A stretch of 64,000 nt of DNA from an uncultured Poribacteria bacterium (GTDB lineage: Bacteria > Poribacteria > WGA-4E > WGA-3G), in assembly GCA_951813565.1 (NCBI GenBank), contig OX638351.1:3168001-3232000 (forward strand), in the 5' to 3' direction. The notes below the pieces were generated by a model, which saw only the letters and a program-made list of their open reading frames with translations, had not been told where the DNA came from and searched no databases. A program made the position numbers and the translations under genes. This document shows, piece after piece, positions 35,400-55,654 of the stretch. Position 1 is the stretch's first letter, and each line of letters opens with the position of its first letter.

Positions 35400-35873
35400 C
35401 CCATAAATCAACGCTATGAGTGCCCTTATGGCATTAAACCAAATCAACGCAGCATGCGCCAAATCAAGAAATCAACGGTATGAATCATGGCGAATGCTAA
35501 AAGCGCATTCGTCTTTAGTCATTCACCGGGTCCGAATGCCCTTTGGCATTCCCCGTATGGCATGCTGCGGGTGTTAATTTAAGGAAACATGACCACCTAT
35601 TCCGACACGGTAGGAGCGGTTTCTAACCGCTCCGTATTATCCGAAAGGCTCTTGTGGGAGGCGTTTTCAACGCCGATATATCGCGCGGACAAAGCGCTCC
35701 CACAAAGATGTCCTGCCGATTAGTGGCTACCAACTCATGTAAGTCCGATTGCGGTGAATCAACGCCAAATACGACAAGTGCCATACGCGTGCTTGGCGTT
35801 GATTTGGCTTTTGGTATTTGTCGGGAAAACGCATCTACCGAGGGTGAAAATCCACTAAATTGACAGTTATGGG
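35400..35873. mobile_element. Composite CCCATA...TATGGG element containing REPs and nested hairpin units
   Basis: Ends match those of 37038-37343 in the opposite orientation. Flanked by a 17-20 bp direct repeat GGTAGAAYAAAGTGAAA(CCC). Confidence 0.7.
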
Positions 35874-35976
35874 GGTAGAATAAAGTGAAACCCAACAAAC
35901 TATCTTCTGTTTGTAACCGCGCAATTCACAGCACCTCTTCCAGTTTAATCGACAACTGATAGCTAAAAACTGAAAT

Positions 35977-36753
35977 ATGAAAACCATCCATACCTCCGTC
36001 CGTGAACAGTTTAGCCAACATGCCGACTATTATGCCCAAAGCAGCGCGCATGCCAAAGGCGATACCCTTGAGGTTATCCTTGACTTTGCAAATCCGAAAG
36101 GGACGGAGAAAACTTTGGATATTGCGACAGGCACAGGTTTTACAGCGTTTGCGCTTGCACCCAAGGTAGCACAAGTGGTCGCTACGGATCTCACGCCTGA
36201 GATGGTCACTAAGGCATCCGAGTTAGCACAGGAACAAGCGATAGAAAATGTTACGTTTTCCGTTGCCGCAGCAGAATCTTTACCGTTTGCTACTGCTTCA
36301 TTAGATTTAGTGACCTGTCGACTTGCTCCTCACCACTTTCAAGATGTTCCCAAATTCTTGAGTGAGGTCCATCGTGTTTTACGAACAGAGGGACTTTTTT
36401 GCCTTGTAGATTCCGTTTCCCCTGAATCAAAAAAATTAATAGCATGGCAGAACCGCGTGGAAAAATTACGCGACGATTCTCATGTGTATGGGTACCCACC
36501 GTCTCAGTGGGATGCGATGATTTCAGATGCCGGTTTTGATATTGAGAGGACAGCACACACGCGAAATGCGCTGATGTCGTTTTTGTGGTGGGTGCGTCCA
36601 CAGAAAAATCCGCCGGAAGTGGTGAAGGAAATCCGTGACGCGTTCGCGCAACTCTCGCCTGATGACGCGAAAAAGTATTATACAGTTAAACCCGCAGATG
36701 ACGATTTCTATTTTTCGTGGCCGATGTATGCTGTTAAAGCAAGAAAAGGATAG
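35977..36753 (+). CDS. Class I SAM-dependent methyltransferase
   Basis: LDIATGTG, AESLPF, APHHF, HRVL. Confidence 0.9.
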   Translation: MKTIHTSVREQFSQHADYYAQSSAHAKGDTLEVILDFANPKGTEKTLDIATGTGFTAFALAPKVAQVVATDLTPEMVTKASELAQEQAIENVTFSVAAAESLPFATASLDLVTCRLAPHHFQDVPKFLSEVHRVLRTEGLFCLVDSVSPESKKLIAWQNRVEKLRDDSHVYGYPPSQWDAMISDAGFDIERTAHTRNALMSFLWWVRPQKNPPEVVKEIRDAFAQLSPDDAKKYYTVKPADDDFYFSWPMYAVKARKG

Positions 36754-37037
36754 AACATCGGTATGTAAAATTCTTGTCATTGACCTTTGCTTTTCTTGTA
36801 GGAGGAGTTTTTAACCCCAATTTCTCAATTGCAACAAGCGTATCGGGCATTGACTTGGATTTCTTCTGTAGGAGCGACCTCCTGGTCCCGACCCGACGAA
36901 TGTCATACGCTCATTTGACGTTGATTCGTAGTGTATCAATAGACATTATAATGATTTAATCGGAAGTGTCTGATAATGCCAAGACCGAAAGATAGGCAAA
37001 AAGTGGATGGCGTGTCCGTCGGGTAGAGCTTGCGACA

Positions 37038-37343
37038 CCCATAACTGTCAATTTAGTGGTCCGCCACCCTGGTAGGCGCGTTTTGATGAAGATTAATTTT
37101 TTAATTCGGTATTTTTCCGTCAGCACAAGGCAAGTGTCCACTTCTGCTGGCGAGGTTTCCTAACCTCGCCAAATTACCGATTTATTTCTTAAACTTCATG
37201 TAAACGCGCTGATAATTCAGAATTTTGCTGAAAATTACACCATTTTTGCCGTAATTACCGCAAAAGTCGAGAAAATTGCGTAAGTCCTGCTTAAGTTTAC
37301 ATCCGCTGAATGCCAACAGACATTCATAGCGTTGATTTATGGG
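37038..37343. mobile_element. Second CCCATA...TATGGG composite element
   Basis: CCCATAACTGTCAATTTAGTGG is the reverse complement of 35852-35873. The other end is homologous to 35400-35583. Confidence 0.7.
37086..37199. mobile_element. ATGAAG...CTTCAT MITE in a REP hairpin loop (114 bp)
   Basis: Near-identical to 29429-29543. Interrupts GCGCGTTT-TGT-AAACGCGC. Confidence 0.85.
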
Positions 37344-37734
37344 TTTCGCTCCGCTCTACCCAACGGACGATACTATTATAAAGAATTAACGCATGTGATA
37401 AAATGCGTCAGAAATATAGAAAACTAAATAACCCTGTCTAACCCCTATGACCATTGACTTCGTGAAAACAAACGCACACACATTTTACATCAGTAGATCT
37501 TTTCTTATTCTTCTAAACCTGATAATATCAATACCAAATACCTATAAAAAAACCATTTAATGAACGATTTTATTCTATTTTGTATTGAAAATAAGGTGTC
37601 TTTTTCACGTAATGGGGATCTATCAATAAGCATTTTTTAGCATTTTCATAACCGCGTATTGAGAGAACTTTGATAGGTAGTGGCTTCTGAGTGCTTTTGA
37701 GAAATCCCAGAATAGAAACTAACCAAACTTACAA

Positions 37735-37848
37735 CTAATTAGTTATAATATCTATTACTGTGATGTTCAGGGTAGCAGCTTCTGCTATATTCAAAACAAC
37801 AAATAAGGAAACCAAAAAAAATATACTAATTAGGCTCAATCGTTTCAT
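37735..37848 (-). pseudogene. Truncated secreted-protein gene (signal peptide only)
   Basis: AAGGAG RBS and MKRLSLISIFFLVSLFVVLNIAEA signal peptide, then stops after 37 codons in AT-rich DNA. Confidence 0.45.
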
Positions 37849-38078
37849 TATTCTAACTCCTTTATTTGGAATACTGTTTAGTTGCCATGGCAATAAGCGG
37901 TATTCCGAAATCGACGTACTTGACCTGGGGTAGTTTATCACTCTTTTGTGTTGGAACTGAGTTTACCACAGAAATTCCATGGGGTCGCAGCACGCTTGAA
38001 ACTTATAACTTAAGCGTAAGTATCACAACTTGAAGAAAAAAAGTCAATTTTATTCTGATTTTACCTCAAGAATTTGTC

Positions 38079-38107
38079 TTGATTTATATTGCGTATATTG
38101 GTATAAT
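38079..38107 (+). promoter_or_regulatory. sigma-70-type promoter for the nadD cluster
   Basis: TTGATT-17 nt-TATAAT. Confidence 0.55.
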
Positions 38108-38236
38108 TAAGGATCAGAAAAATAGTTTCATATCGAATCCGTGTGTTCATGTTTACCCATTTCGGGACACACTTCAGTTAACAATTGTGGCCTATGATAT
38201 GCATATCTTCTCGGTCAGCAAACAAACAAGAAGCAG

Positions 38237-38818
38237 ATGAAAATCGCAATTATGGGGGGGACTTTTAACCCAATCCATTACGCGCATCTGCTGAGTGCCG
38301 AGCAAGTGCGTGAAGGTTTAGGTTACGATAAAATTCTGTTTGTCCCCGCTGCGCGACCACCTCATAAATCACAACCGGATATGGTTTCTGCTGAGCACAG
38401 ATATCAGATGGTGTTGTTAGCAACAGCAGACAACCCGTATTTTGAGGTATCTCGAATTGAATTGGATCGCGATGGTCCATCATACACAATTCAGACAATA
38501 AAAGAATTACGACTCCGCTACGGTAAAACAACAAAACTTGCATGGATTATCGGTGCGGATTCGTTAATTGAGTATAAAATTTGGAAAGATTTCGACGAAG
38601 TGTTAAAGCAGTGTACTATGATTGTTACAACACGTCCCAATTACGATTTACAGCGTGTTCCCGCCGAAATCCGCAATCGTGTTATAACGTTTCAGATAAC
38701 CGGTTTCGATATGTCGGCAACCGAGATTCGGGAACGTATTCGGGAAAACAACTCTATCCGATACCTTGTTCCTAAAAAAGTTGTTATTTATATTGAACAG
38801 CATCAGTTATACCGATAA
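38237..38818 (+). CDS. nadD: Nicotinate-nucleotide adenylyltransferase
   Basis: GGTFNPIHYAH, PPHK, SYT, IIGADS, SATEIR. Confidence 0.95.
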   Translation: MKIAIMGGTFNPIHYAHLLSAEQVREGLGYDKILFVPAARPPHKSQPDMVSAEHRYQMVLLATADNPYFEVSRIELDRDGPSYTIQTIKELRLRYGKTTKLAWIIGADSLIEYKIWKDFDEVLKQCTMIVTTRPNYDLQRVPAEIRNRVITFQITGFDMSATEIRERIRENNSIRYLVPKKVVIYIEQHQLYR

Positions 38819-38902
38819 AAGGATATTCGTAAAGTGTGGTCTGTTAGAGCAAGTGGGCGAATTCTGTCCATACAGATCGTATTAGTTTGAAAAGGAGTTA
38901 AT

Positions 38903-39148
38903 ATGAAGCTGAAATGTAGTCTCTGCGGCACTGCTTACGAATTTATTTATGTAAAAGGTAAGCCTTTACCTCCAAATTTTCCGTTTTGTAGTAACCGATG
39001 TAAGTCGATAGATTTAGGCAAATGGCTTAACGAGGAATATCGTATTAGCATGCCGCTGCCAGAAACAGATATATTAACAGAAATCTTTACCGAATTTCAG
39101 GAAGAGACACTTGCAAGGATACTTGGAGACGATATAGAATCTGAATAG
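38903..39148 (+). CDS. yacG: DNA gyrase inhibitor YacG-like zinc finger
   Basis: CSLC...PFCSNRCKSIDLGKWLNEEYRI. Confidence 0.88.
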   Translation: MKLKCSLCGTAYEFIYVKGKPLPPNFPFCSNRCKSIDLGKWLNEEYRISMPLPETDILTEIFTEFQEETLARILGDDIESE

Positions 39149-39152
39149 GCTT

Positions 39153-39869
39153 ATGTCTCCTGATTTCACACATTCAAGAGTTGATTTGCTCTATAGATCG
39201 CAGCGCAAAAAGAAGATAGACATGACGTTGAGTAAACCTTTTTCAGTAAACAGAAAATTAAAATCAGCGTTTCCTACATTAACGGAACTCAGGAAGCACT
39301 CAAAATCGATAGAAATTCAGCGTTACCTTTCGGAAAAACTGGCATCGGAACGTTTTGATCACGTCCTTTCTGTGCAGGAGACATCAGTAGCATTAGCACG
39401 ATGTCATAATGCGGATGTCTGGAAAACCAATTTAGCGGCTCTTTTACATGATGTAGTAAAATGGATGAGTGACGATCAATTGTACACTGCCGCAGCACGT
39501 TATGAAATAGAACTCGACCCGATTGAGAAGATAATGCCTGCCTTATTACATGCGATTGTCGGTGTAAAGTACGCAATCGAATTATTCGATGTGACCGATT
39601 TAGATGTGCTTGAAGCGATTCGGAATCACACGACAGGCAACGCATCAATGGGAATAACGGCAAAATTAATATATGTAGCAGATTTTGCGGAGCCGACACG
39701 AGAATACAAAGAAGCTGCGCAGGTAAGAAAATTAGCAGAAACACAGTTAGAACAGGCAGTCCATAACGTAGCGCGTTACAAGATAGATTTTCTGCTTCAA
39801 AAAGGATGGATAATTCATCCGAATACCATCCATACCTACAACAGTACGTTGGCAAATATTACGTTTTGA
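39153..39869 (+). CDS. yqeK: HD-domain Ap4A hydrolase YqeK (start uncertain)
   Basis: RFDHVLSV, ALLHDVVK, LLHA, AIRNHTTG, YVADFAEP; nadD/rsfS context. Confidence 0.9.
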   Translation: MSPDFTHSRVDLLYRSQRKKKIDMTLSKPFSVNRKLKSAFPTLTELRKHSKSIEIQRYLSEKLASERFDHVLSVQETSVALARCHNADVWKTNLAALLHDVVKWMSDDQLYTAAARYEIELDPIEKIMPALLHAIVGVKYAIELFDVTDLDVLEAIRNHTTGNASMGITAKLIYVADFAEPTREYKEAAQVRKLAETQLEQAVHNVARYKIDFLLQKGWIIHPNTIHTYNSTLANITF

Positions 39870-39915
39870 GTTTCAAGTTGACTTTAGCATGGTCTAAGTG
39901 TTTAACTCAAACTTA

Positions 39916-40356
39916 TAGTAAAACCTATAATTAATGGGACACTTCTGTAGCGCAAACTTTATGAAGTTTAAGAAAATAAATTCGGTATTTTCCTTAGTCC
40001 CGTAGGGACGATATGTTTGTTGCCATGTGCTGCAAGGACATATCGTCCCTACGGGACTAAGAGAAGAGATAACACCTCCTGCTATAAACATATCGTCCCT
40101 ACCAAATCAACGCCAAATGCGCCAAATCAACGGTATGAATGCCTTTTGGCATTCCCCGTATGGCATTTGTCGGGACTGAAGAGCGTTTGACATATCCAGA
40201 ATATACCTAACAAGAAATTACCGAATTAAAAAATTAATCTTCATTTAGTTTGCGTCTCATAAGGCACAAACTAAAAGTTTGTGCTACAACTTCTATTGTC
40301 CATTATCTTTCCAAGACAAGTTTATCAAAGTGTCCCAATAATTTCAAAGTTCACTA
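39916..40356. mobile_element. IS630-like MITE copy containing nested insertions
   Basis: Identical to 22449-22604 apart from a 284-bp insert (39961-40244) plus 1 bp. Confidence 0.9.
39961..40244. mobile_element. ATGAAG...CTTCAT MITE with different cargo (284 bp)
   Basis: Same ends as the 29429 and 37086 copies. The interior carries GTAGGGACGATATG REPs and nested hairpin units. Confidence 0.88.
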
Positions 40357-40433
40357 TAAATAATACGCAATAGCCTATAACTGTATCTCACGAAGCGTTT
40401 ATGCACGACCTCATTTATTAGGAGACCTAACCG

Positions 40434-40877
40434 ATGGAAACAAATAATACATTAGAAATTGTAAAAGCAGCTGCATCGGCGGCTGTGAGTCGACGCGCAC
40501 AGAATCCTGTGATTCTTGATCTTCGCGAATTAGATTGTTTTACCGACTATTTCGCGATTTTCAGCGGTATCTCCGATGTACAAGTTGAAGGTATTTCAGA
40601 AGCAATCTTAGAAGAACTTGAAGTAAACTGGGATCAGCAACCGTGGCATCGGGAAGGGGCTCAAAAAGCGGATTGGATACTGTTAGACTATGTTGATTTC
40701 GTCGTACACATCTTTTTGGACGAAAGACGTTCCTACTACAGTCTTGAGCGTCTATGGGCAGAAGCTCCGCATGTGAAACTACCGGAAATGGACAGGATTC
40801 CCTTATTAGATGAACCAGAGGAATATGATGAAGATGAAATGGTGTTGGGTCTTGTTTCAGCAGATGAAGAGAACTAA
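40434..40877 (+). CDS. rsfS: Ribosome silencing factor RsfS
   Basis: ILDLR, TDYF, WILLDYVDFVVHIF, YYSLERLW. Confidence 0.95.
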   Translation: METNNTLEIVKAAASAAVSRRAQNPVILDLRELDCFTDYFAIFSGISDVQVEGISEAILEELEVNWDQQPWHREGAQKADWILLDYVDFVVHIFLDERRSYYSLERLWAEAPHVKLPEMDRIPLLDEPEEYDEDEMVLGLVSADEEN

Positions 40878-40933
40878 TTCTAAGGCAGGCAGTTGTTGGG
40901 CAACGTTTTTATCAGTATAAATATATTAATGTA

Positions 40934-41179
40934 ACGACTTGTGCCAGTTACGTATCAGTTTTGTTGTTTTTCACAACTGTTCATATTCTGGAATCAACGC
41001 CAAATACACTTTTGGCATTTGGCGAGAGCGATTTCCGAATCGCGACCCGTTTGTCGTCGGGAATCGGAGTTCCCTCCTACCTTGAGGTTGTCAGGTATCG
41101 GAAAAGTTTCGGAATCCAAACCCAAACGAGGCGAACATGTCAAATATAAACATACCATATGTTAACAGGCACAACGCGT
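40934..41179. mobile_element. MITE with IS982-like ends (246 bp)
   Basis: ACGACTTGTGCCAGTTA ... TAACAGGCACAACGCGT with a 7-bp direct repeat TAATGTA. Carries a REP doublet and a hairpin unit. Confidence 0.8.
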
Positions 41180-41187
41180 TAATGTAA

Positions 41188-41922
41188 CTAATCAATAGCA
41201 ATAAGGAGTACAGTGACGTTATCCGTGCCACCGTAAGCAAGTGCTTTACTAACAAGATTTTCGCCTGCTTCCTCAAGCGTAGACGCTGATGTGATAATAT
41301 TACGAGTCTCGGTGTCGTCGGTAATTAGGTCGTGCAATCCATCGGTGCAGGCGAGGATAATGTCACCAGCGGAAAGTGGATACACGTCTGTCGTGAGCGA
41401 AACCTCTTCTGCTAAGCCGATAGCTTGTGTAATGATGTTTCGTTTTGGATGGACCCGTCCTTCTTCTGGTGTGATTTCACCTTTGTCTATCATTTTTTGC
41501 ACTAATGAATCGTCAACGGTAATTTGTGTAAGAATGTCGTTATGGAGGACGTACAACCGGCTATCACCGACGTGGACGTAAGCTAAATAACTCGGTGTAA
41601 CAAACCCCGCGGTAAGAGTTGTTCCCATTCTGTGGTATTGATGTGAGTCTTGTCCCGTAGCGTAGACACGTCGATTCGCTTCAGTGGCGATTTTTTCTAA
41701 GATATCAAGTCTTTTTATGGGACCCAAATCACTTGTAGGAATAGGGGTTTCTTTTGCCCATTCCTCAAAGATTTGAAGCGCAAGTCGACTTGCAATATCA
41801 CCCCGAGCATGCCCGCTCATTCCGTCCGCGATTGCAAACAACCGATTTTGTTCGTCAAAAAAGTACGAATCTTCGTTTCTTTCTCGAAGAGCACCGATGT
41901 CTGTTTTTGCTATAAAGTTCAT
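41188..41922 (-). CDS. PP2C-type Ser/Thr phosphatase (Stp1/PrpC-like)
   Basis: RERNEDS, IADGMSGH, MGTT, HVGDSRLY, CTDGL, GGTDNVT. Confidence 0.94.
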   Translation of the reverse strand: MNFIAKTDIGALRERNEDSYFFDEQNRLFAIADGMSGHARGDIASRLALQIFEEWAKETPIPTSDLGPIKRLDILEKIATEANRRVYATGQDSHQYHRMGTTLTAGFVTPSYLAYVHVGDSRLYVLHNDILTQITVDDSLVQKMIDKGEITPEEGRVHPKRNIITQAIGLAEEVSLTTDVYPLSAGDIILACTDGLHDLITDDTETRNIITSASTLEEAGENLVSKALAYGGTDNVTVLLIAID

Positions 41923-42046
41923 CGAAATTAGCCCTTCCCTTTACGTTGTAAATTATTAACGTTAAATAAGTAGTTTTGTTTCAAATTAGTCATATATGGA
42001 GCATTATTTAAATTCAATATAAATATGTCACATTGGATGGCATCTT

Positions 42047-43210
42047 ATGAGTATAAATATTGGTATTAGTTCTAAAGTTTACAGATTGACGGCTTCACCG
42101 AAACATCATTTTTTCGGATATTACGGAATTAATCCGTGGGATAAATCAGGTCAATATCATCTTGCACTGGAAACAGATTTTCACACACATCGTCCGACAA
42201 CATCCGATGTTGCCACTGTTGGACTTGTTGATCGCGAAACACATAACTTTATTCCTTATGCCAAAACCTCTGCTTTCAATCTACAACAAGGTAGTATGAT
42301 GCATTGGATAGGTGAGGAATTTACTTTTAACGATTGGGAGAGTGGGACACTTGTATCTCGTGCGCTGAATCCAAAAACAAAGAATATCCGCACGATTCAA
42401 GGAGCGATTGCGGCAGTTTCACCAACAGAACCTGTTGCTATAGGATTGAACTATCAACGTATGGCACATTGTCGTAGCGTTGTTGGTTATGCCAGTGATC
42501 TGGAACTGAATAACATCAAAGCACAACCCGAAGATGACGGTTTATATCTGCTTGGCCTTCAAGATGGTACATCAAAACTCATCCTTTCAATTGCGGATAT
42601 GATGTCAACTATTGACGATGAAAGGCTTGTTGAGAGACGGGCTTGGTTTAACCATGTCCTTTTCAATACAGATGGCACTCGGATTTTGTTTTTCTGCCGC
42701 GTCAGACACGAAAAAGGTTTTTATTCATCGCTATGGACGGTTAACCCTGATGGAACCGGTTTGGAGATACAGATTCCGTTCGGTTATCGCGTTTCACACT
42801 TTGATTGGAAAACTCCCACCGAAATTCTTGTCTCTTCCGATATAGTGGATGAGATGGGTTTCGTTGAATTTACTGACGGTATGCGAAATTTTAAACCTCT
42901 CGGACGTGGTGTGTTACCGAACGATGGACACGCTTCATTTTCACCTGACCGACAATGGTTGCTCTGTGATACCTATCCGCGAGGTACAGAACGTTTAGCA
43001 GAACTTTTGCTTTACCATATTACAGAAAACCGAAAAATCGTTCTTGGAGAATTTCATCACGAAGAACAGTTTAGTGGAGACATTCGGTGCGATTTACATC
43101 CGCGTTGGTCATCAGATGGAAAGACAATTACCTTTGATTCTGTCCATGAAGGTTCTCGGCAAATATACAGCATTGACCTACATAAGTTGACAGAAAACTT
43201 GAACGTATAG
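42047..43210 (+). CDS. TolB/oligogalacturonate-lyase-like beta-propeller protein
   Basis: HHFFGYY, NLQQG, DGHASFSPD, CDTYP, RCDLHPRWS, FDSVHEG. Confidence 0.75.
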   Translation: MSINIGISSKVYRLTASPKHHFFGYYGINPWDKSGQYHLALETDFHTHRPTTSDVATVGLVDRETHNFIPYAKTSAFNLQQGSMMHWIGEEFTFNDWESGTLVSRALNPKTKNIRTIQGAIAAVSPTEPVAIGLNYQRMAHCRSVVGYASDLELNNIKAQPEDDGLYLLGLQDGTSKLILSIADMMSTIDDERLVERRAWFNHVLFNTDGTRILFFCRVRHEKGFYSSLWTVNPDGTGLEIQIPFGYRVSHFDWKTPTEILVSSDIVDEMGFVEFTDGMRNFKPLGRGVLPNDGHASFSPDRQWLLCDTYPRGTERLAELLLYHITENRKIVLGEFHHEEQFSGDIRCDLHPRWSSDGKTITFDSVHEGSRQIYSIDLHKLTENLNV

Positions 43211-43261
43211 GCAAATTTGTGTTGATATGATTGAATTTGAACTACATTGAGGAACATGTGA

Positions 43262-44314
43262 ATGTCAATATCTACCTCTATTCTTGATTTACACACGCAG
43301 TCTCTCGTGATCGATTCCCATAACGATGCCATCGTTGCACATATCCGCCGTGGCAACATCAGTCTTGCAGACGAACACACTAAAAACTCCGATCAGCATA
43401 GTGGCACTATCGCCTATCTACGTGGACGGGTACCGCCTGAAGAGGACGCCATCGGCATTCAACTCAACATTCCAAAAATGCGTCAAGGTGGAATTGATGT
43501 CGCGTTTTTTGCCGTTGACGTGACGCGCGCATGGAAAAATCATCTCTCTTACGCGTTAGACGCTTTCGGTTGGTTTGATACGGAAGTGGCAACCAATGCA
43601 TCTGATATCTGCATCGCACGTACAGCAGCAGACATTCACAAGGCAAAGGCTGAAGGCAAACTTGCCGCAGTGCTTGCCATTGAAAACAGTGAGGCTGTGG
43701 AACGTAGTTTGAATATTCTACGTTCCCTGTATTTACTTAGTGTTCGATCAATTGGGTTGACGCATAACCCAAATACGTGGGCATCAACGGGAAACGATGA
43801 AGGGGAGACTGGTGGAGGTTTAACGAAATTTGGAGTTCAGTTGGTAAAAGAGATGAATAAACTCGGCATGCTGGTTGATGTATCGCACATCAGCGAACGC
43901 GGATTTTGGGATGTATTAGATATATCAGACGCACCTGTTATCGCTTCGCATAGCAACTGCAAAACGTTGTGTAACCATTCTCGTAATTTGACCAACGAAC
44001 AACTTAAGGCGATTGCAGTCAACGGTGGCGTAGTAGGGATAACATTTGTACCAGGATTCATCACTGGAGACGGTTGGAAAAAAACACCTCCCTTTGCACA
44101 ACTTCTCAATCATATTGAATATGCAATTGATGTTGCGGGTCTTGACCATGTTGGCATCGGTTCAGATTTTGATGGTGGTGGGGATCTTCTCAAGGATGCT
44201 ACCGAATTCCCTAAAATCACGGAAGGCTTAAGTGAGCGAGGCTACTCGGATGAAGCAATTCAGAAAGTATTGGGTGGGAACCATCTGCGCGTTTTTGAAG
44301 CTGCGTGTGGATAG
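43262..44314 (+). CDS. Membrane dipeptidase (peptidase M19)
   Basis: IDSHND, LTHN, VDVSH, IASHSN, HVGIGSDFDG, LGGN. Confidence 0.92.
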   Translation: MSISTSILDLHTQSLVIDSHNDAIVAHIRRGNISLADEHTKNSDQHSGTIAYLRGRVPPEEDAIGIQLNIPKMRQGGIDVAFFAVDVTRAWKNHLSYALDAFGWFDTEVATNASDICIARTAADIHKAKAEGKLAAVLAIENSEAVERSLNILRSLYLLSVRSIGLTHNPNTWASTGNDEGETGGGLTKFGVQLVKEMNKLGMLVDVSHISERGFWDVLDISDAPVIASHSNCKTLCNHSRNLTNEQLKAIAVNGGVVGITFVPGFITGDGWKKTPPFAQLLNHIEYAIDVAGLDHVGIGSDFDGGGDLLKDATEFPKITEGLSERGYSDEAIQKVLGGNHLRVFEAACG

Positions 44315-44341
44315 AGCGAATGTAAATGTAAACAGTACAAT

Positions 44342-46578: not shown

Positions 46579-46651
46579 TGCTATTAATCCTTATATTGAC
46601 TTAAGATGCACTGCTTGAGAACGGTCATGAATCCTTGTAAGCTGATTAAAT

Positions 46652-47308: not shown

Positions 47309-47323
47309 ATTATATGTCTATAT

Positions 47324-47887
47324 CTATTTTGAATTATAGAGGGCAGCGAATTGGGTAACTTCGCGTCCAATCGTTTTGACACGCGCTGCCAATTCTGGAT
47401 CGCGTAAATTACCGTTCTCATCAAAAGCTTGAGAAGCACGTGGAATTGAAACATCGTTCGGAATGACCCATGCACGTAATGTAGCACCTACAATTCTTAA
47501 CATTGACAAGGCATTTCCCGCGCCCATCCTACCACCTGAAACACCGATTAGTCCAACAACCTTATTTTCAAATTCCTCATACCGCATCAGATCTAAAGCG
47601 TTTTTGAGAACGCCACTGAAACTTCCATGGTATTCTGGAGTGCCAAGAAGAATACCATGCGCGCGTTTCACCTTTTCCTTGAGTATGAAAACATCGGGAG
47701 GATATTCAGATTCATCTGCAACTGCACCGTGGAAGATAAGTTGATATTCACTCAAATCCAGCAACTCTACCTCCGCACCGACCTCTTTTGCACCTGCAAG
47801 AGCAATTGTCAGTGCTGCGTGTGTGGTACTACCTTGCCGTAGACTACCGCATAGCCCTACCACATAAATCTGTTTATTTGATACCAT
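47324..47887 (-). CDS. NADPH-dependent FMN reductase
   Basis: GSLRQGS, TPEYHGSFSGVLKNALD. Confidence 0.93.
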   Translation of the reverse strand: MVSNKQIYVVGLCGSLRQGSTTHAALTIALAGAKEVGAEVELLDLSEYQLIFHGAVADESEYPPDVFILKEKVKRAHGILLGTPEYHGSFSGVLKNALDLMRYEEFENKVVGLIGVSGGRMGAGNALSMLRIVGATLRAWVIPNDVSIPRASQAFDENGNLRDPELAARVKTIGREVTQFAALYNSK

Positions 47888-47913
47888 AAGGAATATCCTC
47901 TACTCAGGAATAT

Positions 47914-49257
47914 TTATTTTTTCTTTTGTAGTTCACTTTTATTTTCTTTGAGTTTTTCTTGTGTTTTCGCGCGGAGATTCTCATAAGCCTCAACACTTGG
48001 AGCAAGAGTGAGAGCGCGGTTGATAGCAACTAACGCCTCGGAGTATTGTTTATTGCGGTAATAGGCATAAGCAAGTGTGTCGTAATGTTTCGGTATTGGG
48101 GACAAAGCAACTGCATTTTCTGCAAGCGCAATTGCTTGTTTAGTCTCTGTCCCGAGGCCGGCATAGACACGCGCTAAATTGTTATAGGCTTCAGCGGATG
48201 TGTTATCTGCTGCAATAGCCTGCTTGAAAGCCTCAACAGCACGTTCAAACTGCTTACGATTAATATGTATAACACCCAACTTTAACCATGCTTGTAAGTT
48301 GTCAGGTTCAATTTCTGTTATTTTTTGATAGACTTTGGTCGCTTTTTCTAAGGCACGTTGATGAATCAGCACTGTGCCAAGGCTGTGATAGGCGGGTAAA
48401 AAAGAAGGATATAACGCCATTGCAGTCTGATATACACGTTGTGCATCAGCAAAGTTGTCAAATTTTTCGTGGAGTTGTCCTAACTTCACATACAAAATCG
48501 GAGTGTTCGGATTTTTGTAAATTGCTTCGCGAAACCGATGAACGTTGTCTGAGTAACTTTTCATTCGTTCAAACTGCGCCATCGCTTTTTCTGCTGCTTC
48601 CAGATTTTGTAAACAACGGTACGCGATTGCAAGACGGTAATGCGGTTGTGGATCGTAAAGGTTTTGTTTAATGGCTCGACGGTAGTTGTTAACAGCAGAA
48701 ATGAAATCGTTCTGCATTTCTGCCACCCTACCTAAACCGTAATAGGATTCAGTAAAATTTGGATTTAACAGGATGCTCTGGCGATACGCATGTTTTGCCT
48801 TGTCCAATTGACGTTGGAGGAGGTATACCTCTCCAAGATGAATATACGCTTCTGGAGTTTCAGGAGTAAGCGTTAGGACCTCTTTGAGATGCGTCTTTGA
48901 GAGGTGCAATTTTCCTTGTGCTTTGTAGACGATCCCTAAATGGAGGTGAGCACTACCGTGTATTGGCGGAGGGGCTTGGAATGTTAACGCATTCTGATAT
49001 GCTTCTAATGCTTCGTTCAGTCTATTTTGTTCTTGAAGCACCATGCCGATATAACAATAGATGCCGCTACTTGGTTCTTGCTTTCGTATGGTATCAAACG
49101 CCGCTAACGCTTTTTCATACTGTTCCATCTCCATGTAGTGGAGCCCAAGCGCAAATGGGTCGTTAAGCACAACATCGGTATCGCTCCATACCGATACCGT
49201 TCCCCACTGAAAACATAGTGCCAAACAGAAGCACATAAGCAGGCGGTAGTTTAACAT
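47914..49257 (-). CDS. Exported multi-TPR protein
   Basis: Signal-like N-terminus and about ten TPR repeats. Start moved to 49257 because 49290 lies within a terminator hairpin. Confidence 0.85.
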   Translation of the reverse strand: MLNYRLLMCFCLALCFQWGTVSVWSDTDVVLNDPFALGLHYMEMEQYEKALAAFDTIRKQEPSSGIYCYIGMVLQEQNRLNEALEAYQNALTFQAPPPIHGSAHLHLGIVYKAQGKLHLSKTHLKEVLTLTPETPEAYIHLGEVYLLQRQLDKAKHAYRQSILLNPNFTESYYGLGRVAEMQNDFISAVNNYRRAIKQNLYDPQPHYRLAIAYRCLQNLEAAEKAMAQFERMKSYSDNVHRFREAIYKNPNTPILYVKLGQLHEKFDNFADAQRVYQTAMALYPSFLPAYHSLGTVLIHQRALEKATKVYQKITEIEPDNLQAWLKLGVIHINRKQFERAVEAFKQAIAADNTSAEAYNNLARVYAGLGTETKQAIALAENAVALSPIPKHYDTLAYAYYRNKQYSEALVAINRALTLAPSVEAYENLRAKTQEKLKENKSELQKKK

Positions 49258-49282
49258 GCGCTGAACCCGAAGGAGTGTATAA

Positions 49283-49323
49283 GAAAACATGGGGAAATTT
49301 CAAGAAATTTCCCCATGTTTTTT
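49283..49323. terminator. Intrinsic terminator hairpin
   Basis: AAAACATGGGGAAATTT-loop-AAATTTCCCCATGTTTT. Confidence 0.75.
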
Positions 49324-49348
49324 GTTGTTTATGTGTGACGGTTAAGTG

Positions 49349-50131
49349 TTAATTCCGCTTTGTTTTGAGAATACCCCAAGTTGTTGTCAACTTATCGCGT
49401 GGTTCAACAGAAATGAGTAAGCCACCCATTATGTCGTTAACCTCGTCTTTAGAGAGTGCTCGGTTGAAGGCAAAAAAGTCATCAATGTAGAAAGTCGCGG
49501 ATCTATAACCCGTTTTACCGATATACAACTTTTCTTCACCTTGAGCGTGTGCCGCGGGGACGTCATATTCACCAACTTGGACACCATCAATATAAAAATG
49601 GAATTTGCCTGCCGCTTTGACTCCAGCGATATGATGCCATTTACCAGTTTCAAACTGTTGGTCTTCTCCTCCGGGACCCGCACATTGTGAGCCTTGGTTT
49701 CCAGGATTAAACCGATAGTGAATATTCAAGGAATTAGGACACGTCCATACACCAGGGGAACGGTCAGAACCAGGAGCTTTTTTCGCGAAAATTTGACTCC
49801 AGGCACCATTATGCCCCTGAATGAAGTGGAGCCAGAACACAAAACTATTGTCCTGATATTCTTCCAATTCTTGGAAAGATTCAACTTCCAAACTGGCATT
49901 CTGATCTAACATTTCCAAAGAACCCGAACCAACTTTCTTTTCGTCTGTTGTAACACTTGCGCTTGTCAGCGTTCCATTATTGCCTCCACCGGTACCATCA
50001 GTAACGACGCCTCCTGTTTCTTTGTCGAAACTGAAGTAGAGAATTAAACCGTCGTCTAACGCAGCGTGCGTGGAGAGAATGCCACCAGCGAAAAACATTA
50101 CCGCAATAAACACATAAATCGTAAAACGCAT
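49349..50131 (-). CDS. Secreted LamG-like jellyroll protein
   Basis: LILYFSFD, WHHIAG, FYIDG, IDDF, tail VEPRDKLTTTWGILK. Confidence 0.88.
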   Translation of the reverse strand: MRFTIYVFIAVMFFAGGILSTHAALDDGLILYFSFDKETGGVVTDGTGGGNNGTLTSASVTTDEKKVGSGSLEMLDQNASLEVESFQELEEYQDNSFVFWLHFIQGHNGAWSQIFAKKAPGSDRSPGVWTCPNSLNIHYRFNPGNQGSQCAGPGGEDQQFETGKWHHIAGVKAAGKFHFYIDGVQVGEYDVPAAHAQGEEKLYIGKTGYRSATFYIDDFFAFNRALSKDEVNDIMGGLLISVEPRDKLTTTWGILKTKRN

Positions 50132-50750
50132 GAGTAAATTCCTCCTCATGTATTCAATAAACTATTTGGTCTTGTTTGGTGCGAAAAGTTTTTTTATGTC
50201 ATCCCACTTTGGATTGTATAATGTTCGCAAACTAAACAACATCTTTTGTAAGGGACAACTTAAAAACACTCTTTTCGTATAATTACGTAATTACGTTGAA
50301 TATTTTACAAAAAACATCAAAATCTGTCAAGAAAAAATCAAATTTTTTATTTTTGATAATATTCGTGTATTTGGTTGAATTAAAAAATATAGTGATGCTT
50401 AGAAATAGATATACATTATTAGGTTTGGGCGTTTGTAGTTGCGCAATTCATTGCGCCTCTTACATTAGTTTGTAGGTTGGATAGAGCATAGCGAAACCTA
50501 TCGTCATCATTTTTAGAATGAATCTGCTTTTTATGGGAGTCTCCTCGTACGGTAGGAGCGGTTTCCTAACCGCTCCGTGTTCTCCGAAAAACGAACAGTC
50601 GTTCTTGTCAAAGGGTTTCAATTCTGCCAAATGCCCAAAAGCGTATTTGATGTTGATTTGGATTTATCGGGCGGACGAAGCCCTCCTACAAGAAAATGAC
50701 ATGGTTAATGCCAGAAACTTTACATACCCAATATTTACATGCCCTTGACA

Positions 50751-50889
50751 GGGTGTGTAAAGTTTTTGTAGAAATCCGCACCACTCCTATTGTAGGGGCG
50801 GGTCTCCGCCCTACAGTGGGAAACGCCGCGTAATCATTGCAAATTGAACCTATGTAACCAAATATTTACACACCCATATTTACACACCC
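50751..50889. mobile_element. MITE with GGGTGTGTAAA ends (139 bp)
   Basis: GGGTGTGTAAA ... TTTACACACCC with an 8-bp direct repeat CCTTGACA. Carries a GTAGGGGCG REP. Confidence 0.82.
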
Positions 50890-50891
50890 CC

Positions 50892-50920
50892 TTGACAAAT
50901 TTAATCGTTTTTTGTAAAAT
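50892..50920 (+). promoter_or_regulatory. sigma-70-type promoter for the LamG gene
   Basis: TTGACA-17 nt-TAAAAT. Confidence 0.6.
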
Positions 50921-51031
50921 GGGTTTCACTATAGTATTTTGAGAAATAGATTTGAAATAGTATGTGGGTTAAAAAATCAACATGCCTACATCTAATATTA
51001 ACTAACTTGTATGCTCAAGGAGGCAATCACG

Positions 51032-51814
51032 ATGAGATTAGTAACATATTTGTCCTTCATACTCCTACTTTTGGTAGGCGTTCTAACTGCACAAGCTGCA
51101 ATTAAAGATGACGGTTTGATTCTCTATTTCAGTTTTGATGAAACTAATGGTAAAAAAATTGAAGATAAAACCGGTGGAGGGAATGACGCTGAAATAATTA
51201 ATAACGCAGATATAACAACCGATGAAAAAAAGTTTGGTAAAGGTTCTTTGGAAATCAGAGATGCAAATGCTGATGTCCAAGTTCAACCTTTCAAAGAATT
51301 GAATGAATATCAGGACAACAGTTTTCTATTTTGGATCAACTTCATTGCAGCTCATAATGGTGCTTGGAGCCAAATTATCGCAAAAAAAGGACCTGGGGAC
51401 CGATCTCCTGGTATATGGATTTGCCCAAATTCTCTGAACATTCACTGGCGGTTCAACCCTGGAAATCAAGGCACCGAATGTGCTGGTCCTAAAGGAGAAG
51501 GATCCCTGTTTGAATTAGATAAATGGTATCATGTTGCGGGGACCAAAGAAGATGGAACATTGACGTTTTACATTGATGGCGAAAAAACCCAAACAAACGG
51601 TGTTCCGGCAAAACATAATCAGGGTGCTCAGCAACTTTTTATTGGTAAAACGGGATATAGAGCAGCAACCTTCTACATTGATGAACTTTACGTATACGAC
51701 AGAGCCCTTGATGGCGATGAGGTTTCAGGGGTGATGGAAGGTGACTTACTTCCTGTTGAACCCCAGGAAAAACTTGCCACTAAGTGGGGAAAAATGAAAA
51801 CGCGTCGTGACTAA
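51032..51814 (+). CDS. Secreted LamG-like jellyroll protein (divergently transcribed paralog of 49349-50131)
   Basis: Shares YQDNSF, HNGAWSQI, RSPG.W.CPNSLNIH; tail VEPQEKLATKWGKMK. Confidence 0.88.
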   Translation: MRLVTYLSFILLLLVGVLTAQAAIKDDGLILYFSFDETNGKKIEDKTGGGNDAEIINNADITTDEKKFGKGSLEIRDANADVQVQPFKELNEYQDNSFLFWINFIAAHNGAWSQIIAKKGPGDRSPGIWICPNSLNIHWRFNPGNQGTECAGPKGEGSLFELDKWYHVAGTKEDGTLTFYIDGEKTQTNGVPAKHNQGAQQLFIGKTGYRAATFYIDELYVYDRALDGDEVSGVMEGDLLPVEPQEKLATKWGKMKTRRD

Positions 51815-51830
51815 TTCCATATCCATAAAT

Positions 51831-51866
51831 ATAGGGACGGCTTCTATGCTGTCCCTATTCATTTTC
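51831..51866 (+). terminator. Intrinsic terminator
   Basis: ATAGGGACGGC-loop-GCTGTCCCTAT followed by a T-rich tract. Confidence 0.65.
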
Positions 51867-51957
51867 TATCCCCTTTGATTATGCATTCTTCATAAATAAG
51901 GGTGAATTTTAAATTAATTTCGCAACATTGATAAATATCCATATCACAGAGGACATA

Positions 51958-52746
51958 ATGAAAAAAGGAATATGTATTGGGTCATTGCCCGGCGATTCAA
52001 CAGATGCGCGGTTTAAACTTGCCAAAAAAGCAGGTTTTGACGGCGTTGAAATCGGAACATTAAGTAATGATACAGAACGCGTTAAAATAAAACAGTTGGC
52101 AACAGATAACGGAATTGAGTTGTGCAGCGTGATGAATGGAAAACATTGGTCACATCCACTTTCAGATGCGGATGCTGCGGTGCGTGAAGTGTCTCACAAT
52201 GCGATGCTTGATTCATTAGCGACAGCAGAGGCTATAGGTGCAGATACGGTGTTGCTTGTTGCAGCAGTTGTTAATCAAAAGACCACTTATGAAGAGGCAT
52301 ACCAACGTTCCCAAGAAGAAATTCGGAAATTGATTCCAACTGCAAAAGAAAAAGGACTAACCATTGCGATAGAGAACGTATGGAATAAATTTCTATTGAG
52401 TCCTATAGAATTTGCGCGTTACCTTGATGAATTTGAGAGCGATGCAGTTTCAGCTTATTTTGATGTCGGCAATATTGTTGCATACGGTTTTCCACAACAT
52501 TGGATCCATTCGCTTGGTTCTCGTATTTCCAAGGTACATGTAAAAGGCTTCAATGCAAATGAACACCGGTTTACATATCTGATTGAAGAATGCACAATTG
52601 ATTGGAACGCAGTAATGACAGCGCTAACAGATGTCGGGTATGACGACTATATGACAGCCGAACTACCAGTAGGAGCGGATGATCCGGAAGGCACAGTTCA
52701 TCAAATTAGCGAAGATATGGGTAAAATTATCGCTGGAGAAGTTTAG
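51958..52746 (+). CDS. Sugar phosphate isomerase/epimerase (hexulose-6-phosphate isomerase-like)
   Basis: AGFDGVE, IENVWNKFLLSP, YFDVGN, VHVK. Confidence 0.88.
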   Translation: MKKGICIGSLPGDSTDARFKLAKKAGFDGVEIGTLSNDTERVKIKQLATDNGIELCSVMNGKHWSHPLSDADAAVREVSHNAMLDSLATAEAIGADTVLLVAAVVNQKTTYEEAYQRSQEEIRKLIPTAKEKGLTIAIENVWNKFLLSPIEFARYLDEFESDAVSAYFDVGNIVAYGFPQHWIHSLGSRISKVHVKGFNANEHRFTYLIEECTIDWNAVMTALTDVGYDDYMTAELPVGADDPEGTVHQISEDMGKIIAGEV

Positions 52747-52759
52747 AGTTCAGTTTTAA

Positions 52760-53545
52760 ATGGAAGTTATTATTCAACCCTCTCATCATCAACTTGCTGT
52801 AATTGCCTCGGAAATCATTCGGGACGCACTCCTAAAAAAGCTTAACCTCGTGTTGGGTTTAGCGACAGGCAGTACCCCAATAGGGCTTTACAAAGCACTC
52901 GTACGCATGCACAAAGAAGACGGACTCGATTTTTCAAGGGTTACTACCTTTAATTTGGACGAGTACGTTAACATTCCCCGTGAACATCCGCAGAGCTATC
53001 ACACATTCATGGCGAAACACTTTTTTGACCATGTCAATATCTCCGTAGAGAATCAACATATCCCTCAAAATACTGCGGAGAACCATGAAACGTTTTGTGC
53101 AAGGTATGAGGAGGCGATTGAACGTGTTGGCGGTATTGATATTCAAGTACTGGGTATCGGTACGGACGGACATATCGGTTTTAATGAGGTGGGTTCGTCT
53201 CTCGCTTCACGAACCCGCATCGTAACCTTGACGGAAAGCACTCTTGTGGCAAATGCTATCCATTTTGGTGGCGATGTTAGCACGGTGCCAGAAATGGCAA
53301 TTACGATGGGGATTGGTACCATCATGCAAGTAAAGCAGTGCCTGCTTTTAGCATGTGGCACTTCAAAATCGGAAGCAATAGCAAAAGCGATTGAAGGTCC
53401 TATCACAGTTATGATGCCAGCGTCAGCTTTACAGATGCATCCAAATACGGTTGTTTTGATTGATGAAGCGGCGGCATCAAATCTCAAAGAGGTGGAGTAT
53501 TACAAAAGGTCTTATGCAAATAAGTTAAAACTTGAGTCTCAGTAG
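52760..53545 (+). CDS. nagB: Glucosamine-6-phosphate deaminase
   Basis: LGLATGSTP, FNLDEY, GIGTDGHIGFNE, AITMGIGTI. Confidence 0.95.
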   Translation: MEVIIQPSHHQLAVIASEIIRDALLKKLNLVLGLATGSTPIGLYKALVRMHKEDGLDFSRVTTFNLDEYVNIPREHPQSYHTFMAKHFFDHVNISVENQHIPQNTAENHETFCARYEEAIERVGGIDIQVLGIGTDGHIGFNEVGSSLASRTRIVTLTESTLVANAIHFGGDVSTVPEMAITMGIGTIMQVKQCLLLACGTSKSEAIAKAIEGPITVMMPASALQMHPNTVVLIDEAAASNLKEVEYYKRSYANKLKLESQ

Positions 53546-53593
53546 AAACCCGATACGTATTCGTGTAAGTGTGATTACAGTGCATTTCAATAA

Positions 53594-55021
53594 TTACTCG
53601 TCACACAGTCCATATTCTTTAGCTTTCCGTTGAATTGTTCGTCGACTGATGTCAAGGATTTTTGCTGCTTTTGCCTTGTTGTTGTCGGTATATTCAAGTG
53701 TAGCTCGTAACACTTCTCGGTTGATTTCTTCCAGCGACATACCGACTTCAACGTTAAGGTGGAGGTTTCCGTTGTCAAAGGAATCTGTTTTATGGAGGGT
53801 TGGTACTGAAGATATAATTGAATTTGTACCTGCTGTGGTCTTCAGGATACGTTCAGGTAAATCCGTCAGTTGTAGAGTCTCTTGTGTAGACATAACGACA
53901 AGTCCTTCAATGCAGTTTTTCAGCTCGCGCACATTTCCGGGCCAGTGATATTTCATCAAAACTCTAACAGATTCTGGCGTAAGTGCTCTTAATGTTTTTC
54001 CGTTTTCTCTACAAAATTCTTCCAGAAAATCGTTGACAAGCAGTGGAATATCTTCAATTCGTTCTTGAAGTGTTGGTAGGTTAATGGAAACGACGTTAAG
54101 TCGGTCATAGAGATCATGTAGGAATTCACCTTTACTGCAAGCATCTTCTAAGTCATGGTTCGTAGCGCAGATAATACGAACGTTAACTTGGATTGTTTTA
54201 TCTCCTCCCACGCGTTCAAATTCTCGTTCTTCAAGCACACGCAGTAGACGTGCTTGGTTAGAAAGACTCAGTTGAGAAACTTCGTCAAGGAAAAGCGTCC
54301 CTCCGTGAGCAAGTTCAAACCGGCCCTTCCTTTGATTATAAGCACCGCTGAAAGCACCGCGCTCGTGCCCGAAAAGTTCGGATTCTGCCAAATTCTCATT
54401 AAGGGTCGCACAGTTAAAGGCGATAAGATTACCTTGTCGTAAACTCCGATGGTGTATGGCGCGTGCGACCAATTCTTTTCCAGTGCCACGAGCACCATAA
54501 ATCATTACGGTCGCCTTTGTCGGGGCAATTTGGGTAATCATTTCACGAATCTGTATGAGTTGTGGCGATTTACCTGTAAGTCTACAAAGACCTTCCTTTT
54601 CGTCAATTTGTGATCGAAGTTGTCGATTTTCAAAAGTGAGTCGTTGATTCTGAAGTGTTTTATGGAGGAGAGCCTTAAGGTGAACTGGATTAAGCGGTTT
54701 GTAGAGAAAATAAGTTCCTTCATGTGCCAGCATCGCCTTGATACCAATATCGGTTTCTAAAACGTTGGGAGCCGTAATAAAAATAATCCCGACATCCGGA
54801 TGGTGACGTGTAGCAGCTTCCAAGAGAGCTAATCCATCAATCCGTTCGGCTTTCAGAGGCGCAATCAAGATGTCCATCGTCAGGTGTTCAATCCGATGAA
54901 AAGCTTGATACATATTACCTGTAACGATTAGATTGAGTCCTTCCCCGTCAAGTGCTTGACAAATAATCTCACGTTGTCGAGGATTGGCATCTACAATCAG
55001 GACGTTTTTTCGGATGTTCAT
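53594..55021 (-). CDS. sigma-54 enhancer-binding protein (NtrC-like) with atypical receiver
   Basis: GARGTGKE, ESELFGHERGAFSGA, LFLDEV, WPGNVREL, C-terminal Fis HTH. Confidence 0.92.
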   Translation of the reverse strand: MNIRKNVLIVDANPRQREIICQALDGEGLNLIVTGNMYQAFHRIEHLTMDILIAPLKAERIDGLALLEAATRHHPDVGIIFITAPNVLETDIGIKAMLAHEGTYFLYKPLNPVHLKALLHKTLQNQRLTFENRQLRSQIDEKEGLCRLTGKSPQLIQIREMITQIAPTKATVMIYGARGTGKELVARAIHHRSLRQGNLIAFNCATLNENLAESELFGHERGAFSGAYNQRKGRFELAHGGTLFLDEVSQLSLSNQARLLRVLEEREFERVGGDKTIQVNVRIICATNHDLEDACSKGEFLHDLYDRLNVVSINLPTLQERIEDIPLLVNDFLEEFCRENGKTLRALTPESVRVLMKYHWPGNVRELKNCIEGLVVMSTQETLQLTDLPERILKTTAGTNSIISSVPTLHKTDSFDNGNLHLNVEVGMSLEEINREVLRATLEYTDNNKAKAAKILDISRRTIQRKAKEYGLCDE

Positions 55022-55384
55022 TTGCCACCCTGGCTCTCTTTAGAATTTCAGTATAATTAAATACGTTTGCGTGTACTATTGAAACATGCCTACTGGAAAT
55101 GTTTGTACGTAAACATCGTCTTGATAGATTATACCTGATGTTTCTATCTTTCGTCAACAAGAATGTTGTAATTCCAGAGCTATTCAGTTTTCGTGTTTTT
55201 CTCAACATTTTGGCGCATTGGTCGAGACCAGGAGGTTGCTCCTACAAGAAGAAAATCGGGCGGACAAGGTCTCCCTCCCACAAGAGCAAATCCAGCATTT
55301 TTTCTTAAGTTGATACTTATAGGTTTCGCGTTTGCTCTACCTGACCTATAAAATAATGAATATCGTCACATAGAAATGATATTA

Positions 55385-55654
55385 GAACGTATCTCATAAA
55401 TCATTTGTAGGGCGAGGTCCCGGGGAATGCCATAAGGCATTCGGACCCGGTGAATGACTAAAGACGAATGCGCTTGGTAGAATACGCTTTTGGTATTCTA
55501 CATGATTCGCCATGATTCATACCGTTGATTTCTTGATTTGGTGCCTCGCCATGTCTCATAAATGAAAAATCATGGGCGGGCACAGAGACCCGCCCCTACG
55601 ATGGAGTTGAATTTTCTGGTGGGAACCGTGTTTAACGATTTATGAGATAGACTT
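55385..55654. mobile_element. MITE with TATCTCATAAATC terminal repeats and TA flanks
   Basis: GAACGTATCTCATAAATC ... GATTTATGAGATAGACTT. Carries two REPs and a nested hairpin cassette. Confidence 0.7.

Follow-up and report, generated by a model that had tools for sequence, protein, structure and literature searches.

A 33–36-nt leader-plus-hairpin unit as a very small mobile DNA of one Poribacteria family

The subject of this study is a hairpin unit of 33–36 nt that recurs in a 64,000-nt stretch of DNA (hereafter, the window; G000:C1:3168001-3232000) within the 5.43-Mb single-contig genome of a member of Candidatus Poribacteria, which are sponge-symbiont bacteria. Completeness of this genome, labelled G000, is 95%; other G numbers denote genomes of relatives. 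Each unit consists of two variable bases, the fixed leader AATCAAC and a hairpin of 25–27 nt. We conclude that it is a real, very small mobile DNA of one Poribacteria family: its boundaries are defined, its two junctions differ, it inserts without duplication, its nesting follows from its own sequence and it has inserted at sites that are empty in other species. The initial annotation of the window had proposed a minimal, asymmetric, self-nesting mobile hairpin, a description that is borne out by filled and empty orthologues in different species.

Two genes provided these orthologues. In a lipoate-protein ligase-like gene (PF21948; G000:C1:4511528-4512385), a 36-nt unit lies in frame at a C^G site (position 4511663) and adds 12 residues near the C-terminus; five of five relatives are empty, with neither scar nor duplication, and among the six species compared only the present one is filled. 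Similarly, a 33-nt unit lies in frame in an 8-oxoguanine glycosylase (OGG)-like gene (G000:C1:4444573-4445490), where it adds 11 residues at the N-terminus. This site is filled in eight of 24 genus genomes, and the exact empty site was found in six of the other 16. The OGG-like unit is old, its frame having been kept across the eight genomes at approximately 82–84% protein identity. Further, excision of 34 nt from CA-leader units restored a 20-mer known elsewhere in 86 of 125 cases, while other cut lengths did so in 0–1.

By means of two sequence patterns, 544 intact units were counted in the genome, with the variable bases of the leader being CA in 333, TG in 102, GG in 41, CG in 36 and TA in 19. 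Among 543 units, the hairpin consists of a 9-pair stem with a 7–8-nt loop in 407 and is of a short-loop form in 136. Leader-plus-arm starts number 893, of which 81 lie in gene-like open reading frames (ORFs), which cover 82% of the genome; among the genome's 9-mers, AAATCAACG is the most frequent, with 817 occurrences. The association of leader and hairpin is not due to chance: a 9-pair stem (8 or more pairs formed) with a 7-nt loop comes directly after 304 of the 2358 occurrences of AATCAAC, as opposed to 1–4 of 565–1650 for six control heptamers. A covariance model was built separately; its genome search scored 150 of 4501 candidates, so that the 166 matches do not give a copy number.

The arms of the units had been described as varying while staying complementary, and this was confirmed when 40 units (38 of them distinct), taken from the window and from other Poribacteria, were aligned. 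There, the leader AATCAAC is invariant, six of the nine pairs change on both sides and 95% of cells pair. None of 500 shuffles reached the covariation score, which relatedness and hairpin-templated mutation can inflate; the kin genomes are not independent.

At the junctions (a slash marks a joint with flanking DNA), a genome-wide CG bias is present for the CA-leader class: 220 of 229 first units, and 21 of 26 among dissimilar sites, lie at C^G, while CG makes up 6% of the flank dinucleotides. A single C^G rule did not survive, since 187 of 416 first-unit sites carry another leader, often with target bases replaced. On the hairpin side, 388 of 433 non-tandem copies show C/G and 28 show T/G; this junction is nearly invariant, G always adjoining the hairpin foot, usually as C/GG, and across dissimilar sites a target consensus exists only at −1 (C, 22 of 26) and at +1 to +2 (G). 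On the leader side, G-leader copies often replace one or two target bases, and at other sites either two are replaced or none. Owing to this replacement, the net gain is 32–36 nt, with an exact hairpin end and a loose leader end.

The sites used are other palindromic repeats, the unit's own loop, the position in tandem behind another unit and, rarely, genes in frame. Units lie mainly in GTAG/GTGG repeats that resemble those found beside the genes for REP-associated tyrosine transposases (RAYT) of the genus, REP standing for repetitive extragenic palindrome; flanks that are nearly unique were seen for only 36 of the 544 units. One filled context occurs 36 times with 13 hairpin variants and another 20 times with two, which indicates that part of the copy number stems from host repeats spreading with their passenger, or from conversion. 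In a further family, GTGG-tagged copies are empty in 61 cases and none is filled at the tag. An IS608-type guide rule would predict TGxG targets; this rule was rejected, since those 61 empty repeats offer TGxG and none is filled there. As to an orientation bias towards the lagging-strand template, the units divide 297 to 247 on a split by skew that was not credible; there are no clear replichores, and the IS605 control was flat as well. As an additional observation, the intergenic regions at window positions 35200-56000 hold many distinct GTAG/GTGG REP families side by side.

Insertion of a unit recreates C^G at its own 3' end and its loop offers a second C^G, which accounts for both tandem arrays and nesting. 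Indeed, 114 of 543 units are directly trailed by CAA, the start of the next leader, and 21 units became visible only once inner ones had been peeled out. Double-tailed forms (leader, hairpin, inverted leader) were also seen, among other places, at G000:C1:502438-502476, 1083204-1083242 and 1460149-1460187, and resemble the product of a deletion between two filled repeats in inverted orientation.

Longer cassettes occupy the same kind of site. Those of 95 and 119 nt are 35-nt short-loop units with further pieces inside, and the four cassette stages (97, 25, 17 and 23 copies) are at C^G in 160 of 162 cases, in unit loops and REP loops. Cassettes of 95–119 nt with the unit's ends occupy unrelated C^G sites. 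Either cargo can be moved wherever both ends are present, or composites arose in place by conversion of simple units. Of the 374 long-loop hairpins, 120 have no exact leader; they share the same loop, the commonest of them are followed by ATG, and they lie inside other units and REPs. These leaderless hairpins may represent a sister class of micro-elements of about 25–28 nt.

In the window, the initial annotation had listed ten stretches between 35440 and 55540, all of which were found with their coordinates and strands, seven of them between C and G as claimed (35440, 35460, 35773, 36895, 40103, 40123 and 55422). The remaining junctions are T^G at 35756, G^G at 40991 and C^A at 50626. The absence of terminal inverted repeats and a duplication of at most 1 bp hold for the window units, and the three units said to lie inside others (35460, 35773 and 40123) are each in the loop of another window unit. 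The simple opening of a CG fails at 35756 and 40991, where the unit replaces target bases. As for the claim that excision restores recognizable targets, the joined-flank 20-mer occurs elsewhere for four of the ten (34, 1, 2 and 4 copies) and not for the rest; near-identical empty repeats are present for 55422, 40991, 50626 and 35756, and none was found in the genome for 36895.

The first cluster of the window begins with a decayed unit with a TA leader (35404-35439, + strand; covariance model E 0.011), which, together with a 35-nt unit with a TA leader detected by the covariance model at 37305-37339 (−), had escaped the original list. Tandem at the 3' end of the former lies a 34-nt CA-leader unit at C^G (35440-35568, +), whose loop is split by a 95-nt composite cassette running from a leader to a short-loop hairpin end (35460-35554, +; also at C^G), the joined flanks of which occur 34 times in the genome. 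Within this cassette, a leaderless hairpin copy covers positions 12-32 of the covariance model (35491-35511, −). Further downstream, a G-leader unit within another palindromic repeat (35756-35822, +), with a target base replaced, has its loop split by a 34-nt CA-leader unit on the opposite strand, at C^G (35773-35806, −). A 33-nt G-leader unit lies at C^G at 36895-36927 (−).

The unit at 40103-40171 (+; 34 nt, CA leader) is inserted at C^G in a GTAG-type repeat, and an empty copy of the target hairpin loop used there is present at 40047-40058 (+), as had been noted for a position near 40047. Its loop is split by a 35-nt short-loop ('B-type') unit at C^G (40123-40157, +), of which 97 simple copies exist genome-wide, 96 of them at C^G. 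At 40991-41023 (+), a G-leader unit lies in the GTAG tag of a REP and replaces the TA of that tag, which is intact in 32 empty copies. The unit at 50626-50660 (−) has 35 nt, a CA leader and an 8-nt loop; its C^A junction is probably a decayed C^G site. Lastly, a GTAG-tagged REP at 55407-55550 (+) carries in its loop a 119-nt composite cassette at C^G (55422-55540, −) with two ends as in the 35-nt unit, known from 23 copies genome-wide, all at C^G. Within this cassette lies a leaderless hairpin (55477-55501, +), with ATG next on the cassette strand.

Filled/empty polymorphism, which the initial annotation had called for, thus exists between species, at the two genes described above, and did not appear within the species, where all bridging contigs from four sequencing runs were filled. 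The unit at 50626 was present in four of four runs, that at 36895 in three (the fourth ends 8 bases short) and that at 35756 in one under a 31-base rule. These all-filled contigs weigh against recent activity. Among the joints listed, one that skips 40123-40158 has about 10 times the locus depth and was read as paralogous copies. Of the runs listed as containing this DNA, none was of RNA. In the spacers orthologous to 40103 and 40991, the whole repeat stack is missing (24 of 29 relatives where the spacers could be cut out) and there is consequently no unit-level empty allele at these two sites; three of those relatives carry their own units in the spacers, within other host repeats.

The unit is confined to one family. 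A strict pattern detected it in 38 of the 39 other genus genomes, and a relaxed pattern in 81 of 99 family genomes, with 0–395 copies each besides the present genome, which has 426. In other families, the relaxed pattern matched in two of 51 genomes, both matches being stemless by eye. Among the 80 of 109 loci listed as GTDB matches, 79 belong to Candidatus Poribacteria and one to an 'uncultured bacterium', with no cyanobacterium among them. IMG/VR gave 0 matches to the unit, and Rfam gave 0 at gathering score for window positions 35000-56000. None of the papers listed in literature searches describes the present repeat; repeat catalogues could be present in supplements.

With regard to how the unit moves, we tentatively prefer movement in trans as single-stranded DNA by an HUH enzyme (Y1, RAYT-like) that reads leader and stem, a proposal to which we give somewhat less than an even chance. 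The unit would be cut out or copied as single-stranded DNA, and a trans-acting enzyme, most likely such a nuclease cutting after C, would read leader and stem and join the unit into its target. The hairpin-side junction would correspond to precise strand transfer and the leader side would be resolved loosely, with 0–2 target bases lost; much of the copy number may then be owed to the spread of host repeats that carry a unit along, and to copies converting one another. The likeness to HUH substrates, as far as the passages compared describe them, lies in a tag at the palindrome foot and in the lack of inverted ends and of duplication (PMC3333891). In RAYT systems, according to the part of PMC8266576 consulted, the base that precedes the cut is chosen by the final base of the guide, and the base that follows it by a guide base further in. 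Under that rule, AACG at the stem foot would select C/G, which would be a neat fit. Read on its opposite strand, the unit is a hairpin followed by a 9-nt tail and resembles an IS200/IS605 right end. Y1 genes are present in 36 of 40 genus genomes, and G001, the sole unit-free genome, has none.

Several results speak against this proposal. A clean HUH cut-and-join would lose no target bases, yet G-leader copies do. One GTAG-tagged repeat exists as 233 empty copies with GTAG and 0 with GTGG, yet as 14 filled copies without A or TA, and the same tally in a second such family gave 45, 0 and 10. The guide argument needs the leader-first strand, while stem mismatches mildly favour the opposite one (A·C 49 vs. 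G·T 28 in 133 distinct units, p 0.02), which counts against the guide fit, and the left junction of CA units is C/C rather than C/G. Copy number does not follow Y1 count (rho 0.16, p 0.33, 38 genomes), and 49 units are present in G023, for which no Y1 match was found. Moreover, no Y1 gene is bracketed by the unit (79 mobile-enzyme loci), the unit's ends are unlike the IS605 ends of the present genome, and no empty allele was found within the species in contigs of four runs from four studies, in which rare variants are invisible.

The search for an enzyme covered several families. The expected presence of the unit at the ends of mobile-enzyme genes was not observed, as 0 of 79 Y1, reverse transcriptase and recombinase loci were bracketed according to the covariance model. 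The genome has 10 Y1 matches, a genome-wide Y1 profile finds only those 10 ORFs, and none of them lies in the window. Among the flanks listed, the five RAYT-like genes here and those of relatives have their own GTAG-, GTGG- or other flanking repeat; units near RAYT-like genes are passengers. No autonomous parent was seen among the 35 of 4284 gene-like ORFs bracketed by units (inspected by eye only, with no family scan; cas1 is one of them), nor near 113 metagenome matches, where two Y1 hits score as the present genome's own L010 and L006 proteins. Searches for IS110-type genes (PF01548) gave 0 matches in the genome, with controls matching, and those for IS91-type genes (PF04986) gave 0 matches, with no control matching either. 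An origin as CRISPR spacers was rejected, as no unit is present among the 53 spacers listed.

Several features of the mobile-enzyme genes were recorded along the way. Two of the five RAYT-like genes in the present genome are broken, and the RAYT genes of the genus each have their own flanking repeat; RAYT-like genes are located at G000:241978, 5070794 and 3097947, and an IS605 TnpA gene at 228383. About 45 TnpB-like ORFs represent several IS200/IS605 families, mostly TnpB only, after TTAG- or TTAA-like targets, and of five TnpA copies two are damaged. At G000:C1:3988991-3996420, a reverse transcriptase gene adjoins cas1 and a CRISPR array with some 54 repeats, with units on both sides of cas1, and a Drt4 antiviral reverse transcriptase above the NCBIfam cut-off is encoded at G000:C1:811737-813284. 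G015, G016, G050, G052 and G055 contain numerous long ORFs for reverse transcriptase, situated on small contigs or together in a single block, which look like contamination by eukaryotic retroelements.

A different possibility, which we regard as worth keeping in mind and on balance doubtful, is a single-strand insertion pathway not described so far, exact at the end where the hairpin foot meets G and loose at the other, driven by an enzyme outside the known transposase families. Such a pathway would need only a 7-nt leader and a 25-nt hairpin, would be able to carry about 100 nt of cargo and could underlie the many enzyme-less micro-hairpins of other phyla.

Of similar standing, and again rather unlikely, is a spread by host processes that needs no dedicated enzyme: template switching at stalled hairpins plus conversion among short repeats, using 1–3 bases of microhomology, with arm symmetry arising from hairpin-templated mutation. 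In its favour are replaced target bases and a donor-like flanking G, the strong preference for other hairpins that leaves so few units in near-unique flanks (36 of 544), single sites filled 10–36 times, the existence of double-tailed and leaderless derivatives and the failure to find an enzyme at 79 loci. It is difficult, however, to explain a fixed 7-nt leader throughout the family, a sharp unit length and clean insertion at a unique gene site without a protein that reads the ends.

The one fixed and one variable junction, and the G-rich 3' flank at nearly all dissimilar sites, are also compatible with movement through a short RNA, made up of leader and hairpin and left over as a stable product of decay, whose reverse transcription would be primed at the target's C run, giving one exact and one loose end. 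A route via RNA and reverse transcription has reportedly been an idea for the small dispersed repeats of Nostoc, and the present genome does have reverse transcriptases (the one beside cas1 and the Drt4 enzyme). We nevertheless consider it improbable, given that PF00078 occurs in only 18 of 40 genus genomes and is absent from G006, G012, G048, G017 and G014, which have 80–395 units, that none of the 53 CRISPR spacers listed holds a unit and that the leader-first strand shows no preference for wobble pairs.

Slightly less probable still is handling of the unit by a 207-aa tyrosine recombinase (G000:C1:4771357-4771974), a catalytic-domain protein and the product of the genome's only PF00589 gene. 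The 9+7+9 layout of the unit resembles a crossover site, and its leader resembles the inverse core of an integron attC. The protein is 77–95% identical in 26 of 38 genus genomes, and its carriers have more units (median 46 vs. 25, p 0.014) and include all nine genomes with at least 80. This association is drawn from non-independent kin, and non-carriers reach 49 units; genus g9 has units but no close homologue, no unit lies near the gene in six loci, and the target is G-G-rich rather than GTT-like. The protein falls into generic PF00589 clusters only in a protein atlas, no gene of XerC/XerD length was found in the present genome, and ten genus genomes have no match at E 1e-10.

Finally, the idea that a single larger insertion sequence of a known type has the units as its ends or as pieces of its interior is very unlikely and already largely refuted: longer cassettes with both unit ends do exist, but the longest found have about 200 nt and are built of further repeats, the DNA between units holds no transposase gene, the genome's IS605 elements have ends that differ from those of the units and are not their source, and the searches for IS110-type and IS91-type genes gave no match, the latter with silent controls.

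The window units sit between housekeeping genes, namely those for an alcohol dehydrogenase, a methyltransferase, a cytidylyltransferase, an HD protein, RsfS, PP2C, LamG proteins and a sigma-54 regulator, a naming that rests on 14 of 84 ORFs scanned. Elsewhere in the window, two near-identical stretches on the − strand at 17590 and 19405 start with the leader heptamer inside paralogous genes (17537-19318 and 19352-21139); they form no hairpin and are not units. A cluster of substitutions common to three of four runs at 48866-48889, in a TPR gene, suggests a converted or recombined tract.

For the question of how repeats of less than 40 bases move, the present family is an unusually clean test case: its copies run into the hundreds, its ends are defined, two genes hold insertions that can be dated, and the candidate enzymes are few and come from a single genus. 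If its enzyme were found, the unit, as a donor of 34 bases that tolerates cargo and causes no duplication on insertion, would be about the smallest transposon substrate imaginable. The unit also shapes genomes: assemblies break at the repeats, and two proteins have gained 11–12 residues. The kind of element is known but unexplained, and the enzyme that moves this one was not found; what is added here are the pairs of filled and empty sites in two genes, the finding that G-leader sites lose target bases, cargo cassettes at unrelated sites and the failure of reverse transcriptase and Y1 counts to track copy number.

In comparison with known systems, the unit differs from an integron cassette (attC, with RYYYAAC and GTTRRRY cores) in that only 16 of 543 hairpins have GTT next to them on the 3' side, and the genome's sole tyrosine recombinase is the 207-aa catalytic-domain protein and not an integron integrase. 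Unlike miniature inverted-repeat transposable elements, it has asymmetric ends, exact insertion and no target-site duplication. With non-autonomous IS200/IS605 derivatives, it shares the lack of inverted ends and of duplication, a hairpin approximately 9 nt from one end and cargo between two ends; however, it has one hairpin, flush with one end, instead of two subterminal ones, it lacks a 4–5-nt target consensus, and its ends are unlike those of the genome's TnpB/TnpA elements.

The likeness to GTAG REPs and REPINs with RAYT (TnpA-REP), in the passages of PMC8266576, PMC3333891, PMC3116915 and PMC6006769 that were compared, comprises a tag on the 5' side of a palindrome, intergenic copies in the hundreds, the lack of inverted ends and of duplication, a junction after C, tandem arrays and occasional in-frame insertions in genes. 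The unit differs in having AATCAAC at its foot in all 304 units and no GTRG (GT(A/G)G) tag, and no cognate RAYT is flanked by it (0 of 79 loci bracketed); judged by the flanking bases, its junction appears mostly C^G and not C/T or C/A. Furthermore, it moves singly and not as an inverted pair like REPINs, and is itself a passenger of REPs. CGTC-tagged REPs are likewise short tagged hairpins, some of them inside other palindromes or in frame in genes, for which no dedicated transposase is reported as found in the passages compared; they have another tag and tail, and those passages do not describe self-nesting (PMC3733652). In its working, the unit is similar to a REP or to the end of an IS200/IS605 element, but it belongs to neither group.

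The small dispersed repeats SDR1-8 of Nostoc and relatives, 21–27 nt long, were reportedly described by Elhai et al. (Genome Res, 2008). To our knowledge, there is no sequence likeness between the present unit and SDR1-8. As reportedly described, those repeats are alike in being shorter than 100 nt and dispersed with compensatory changes (here, 33–36 nt and 544 copies), in being nested in themselves and in other repeats, in having filled and empty sites and in being confined to a clade; a passage of PMC4390886 was used for this comparison. The present unit differs from them in its length of 33–36 nt instead of 21–27 nt, its fixed single-stranded leader, its one exact and one loose junction, the composite cassettes of up to 119 nt in the same sites and its GTAG/GTGG REP hosts. 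In kind, it matches the Nostoc repeats.

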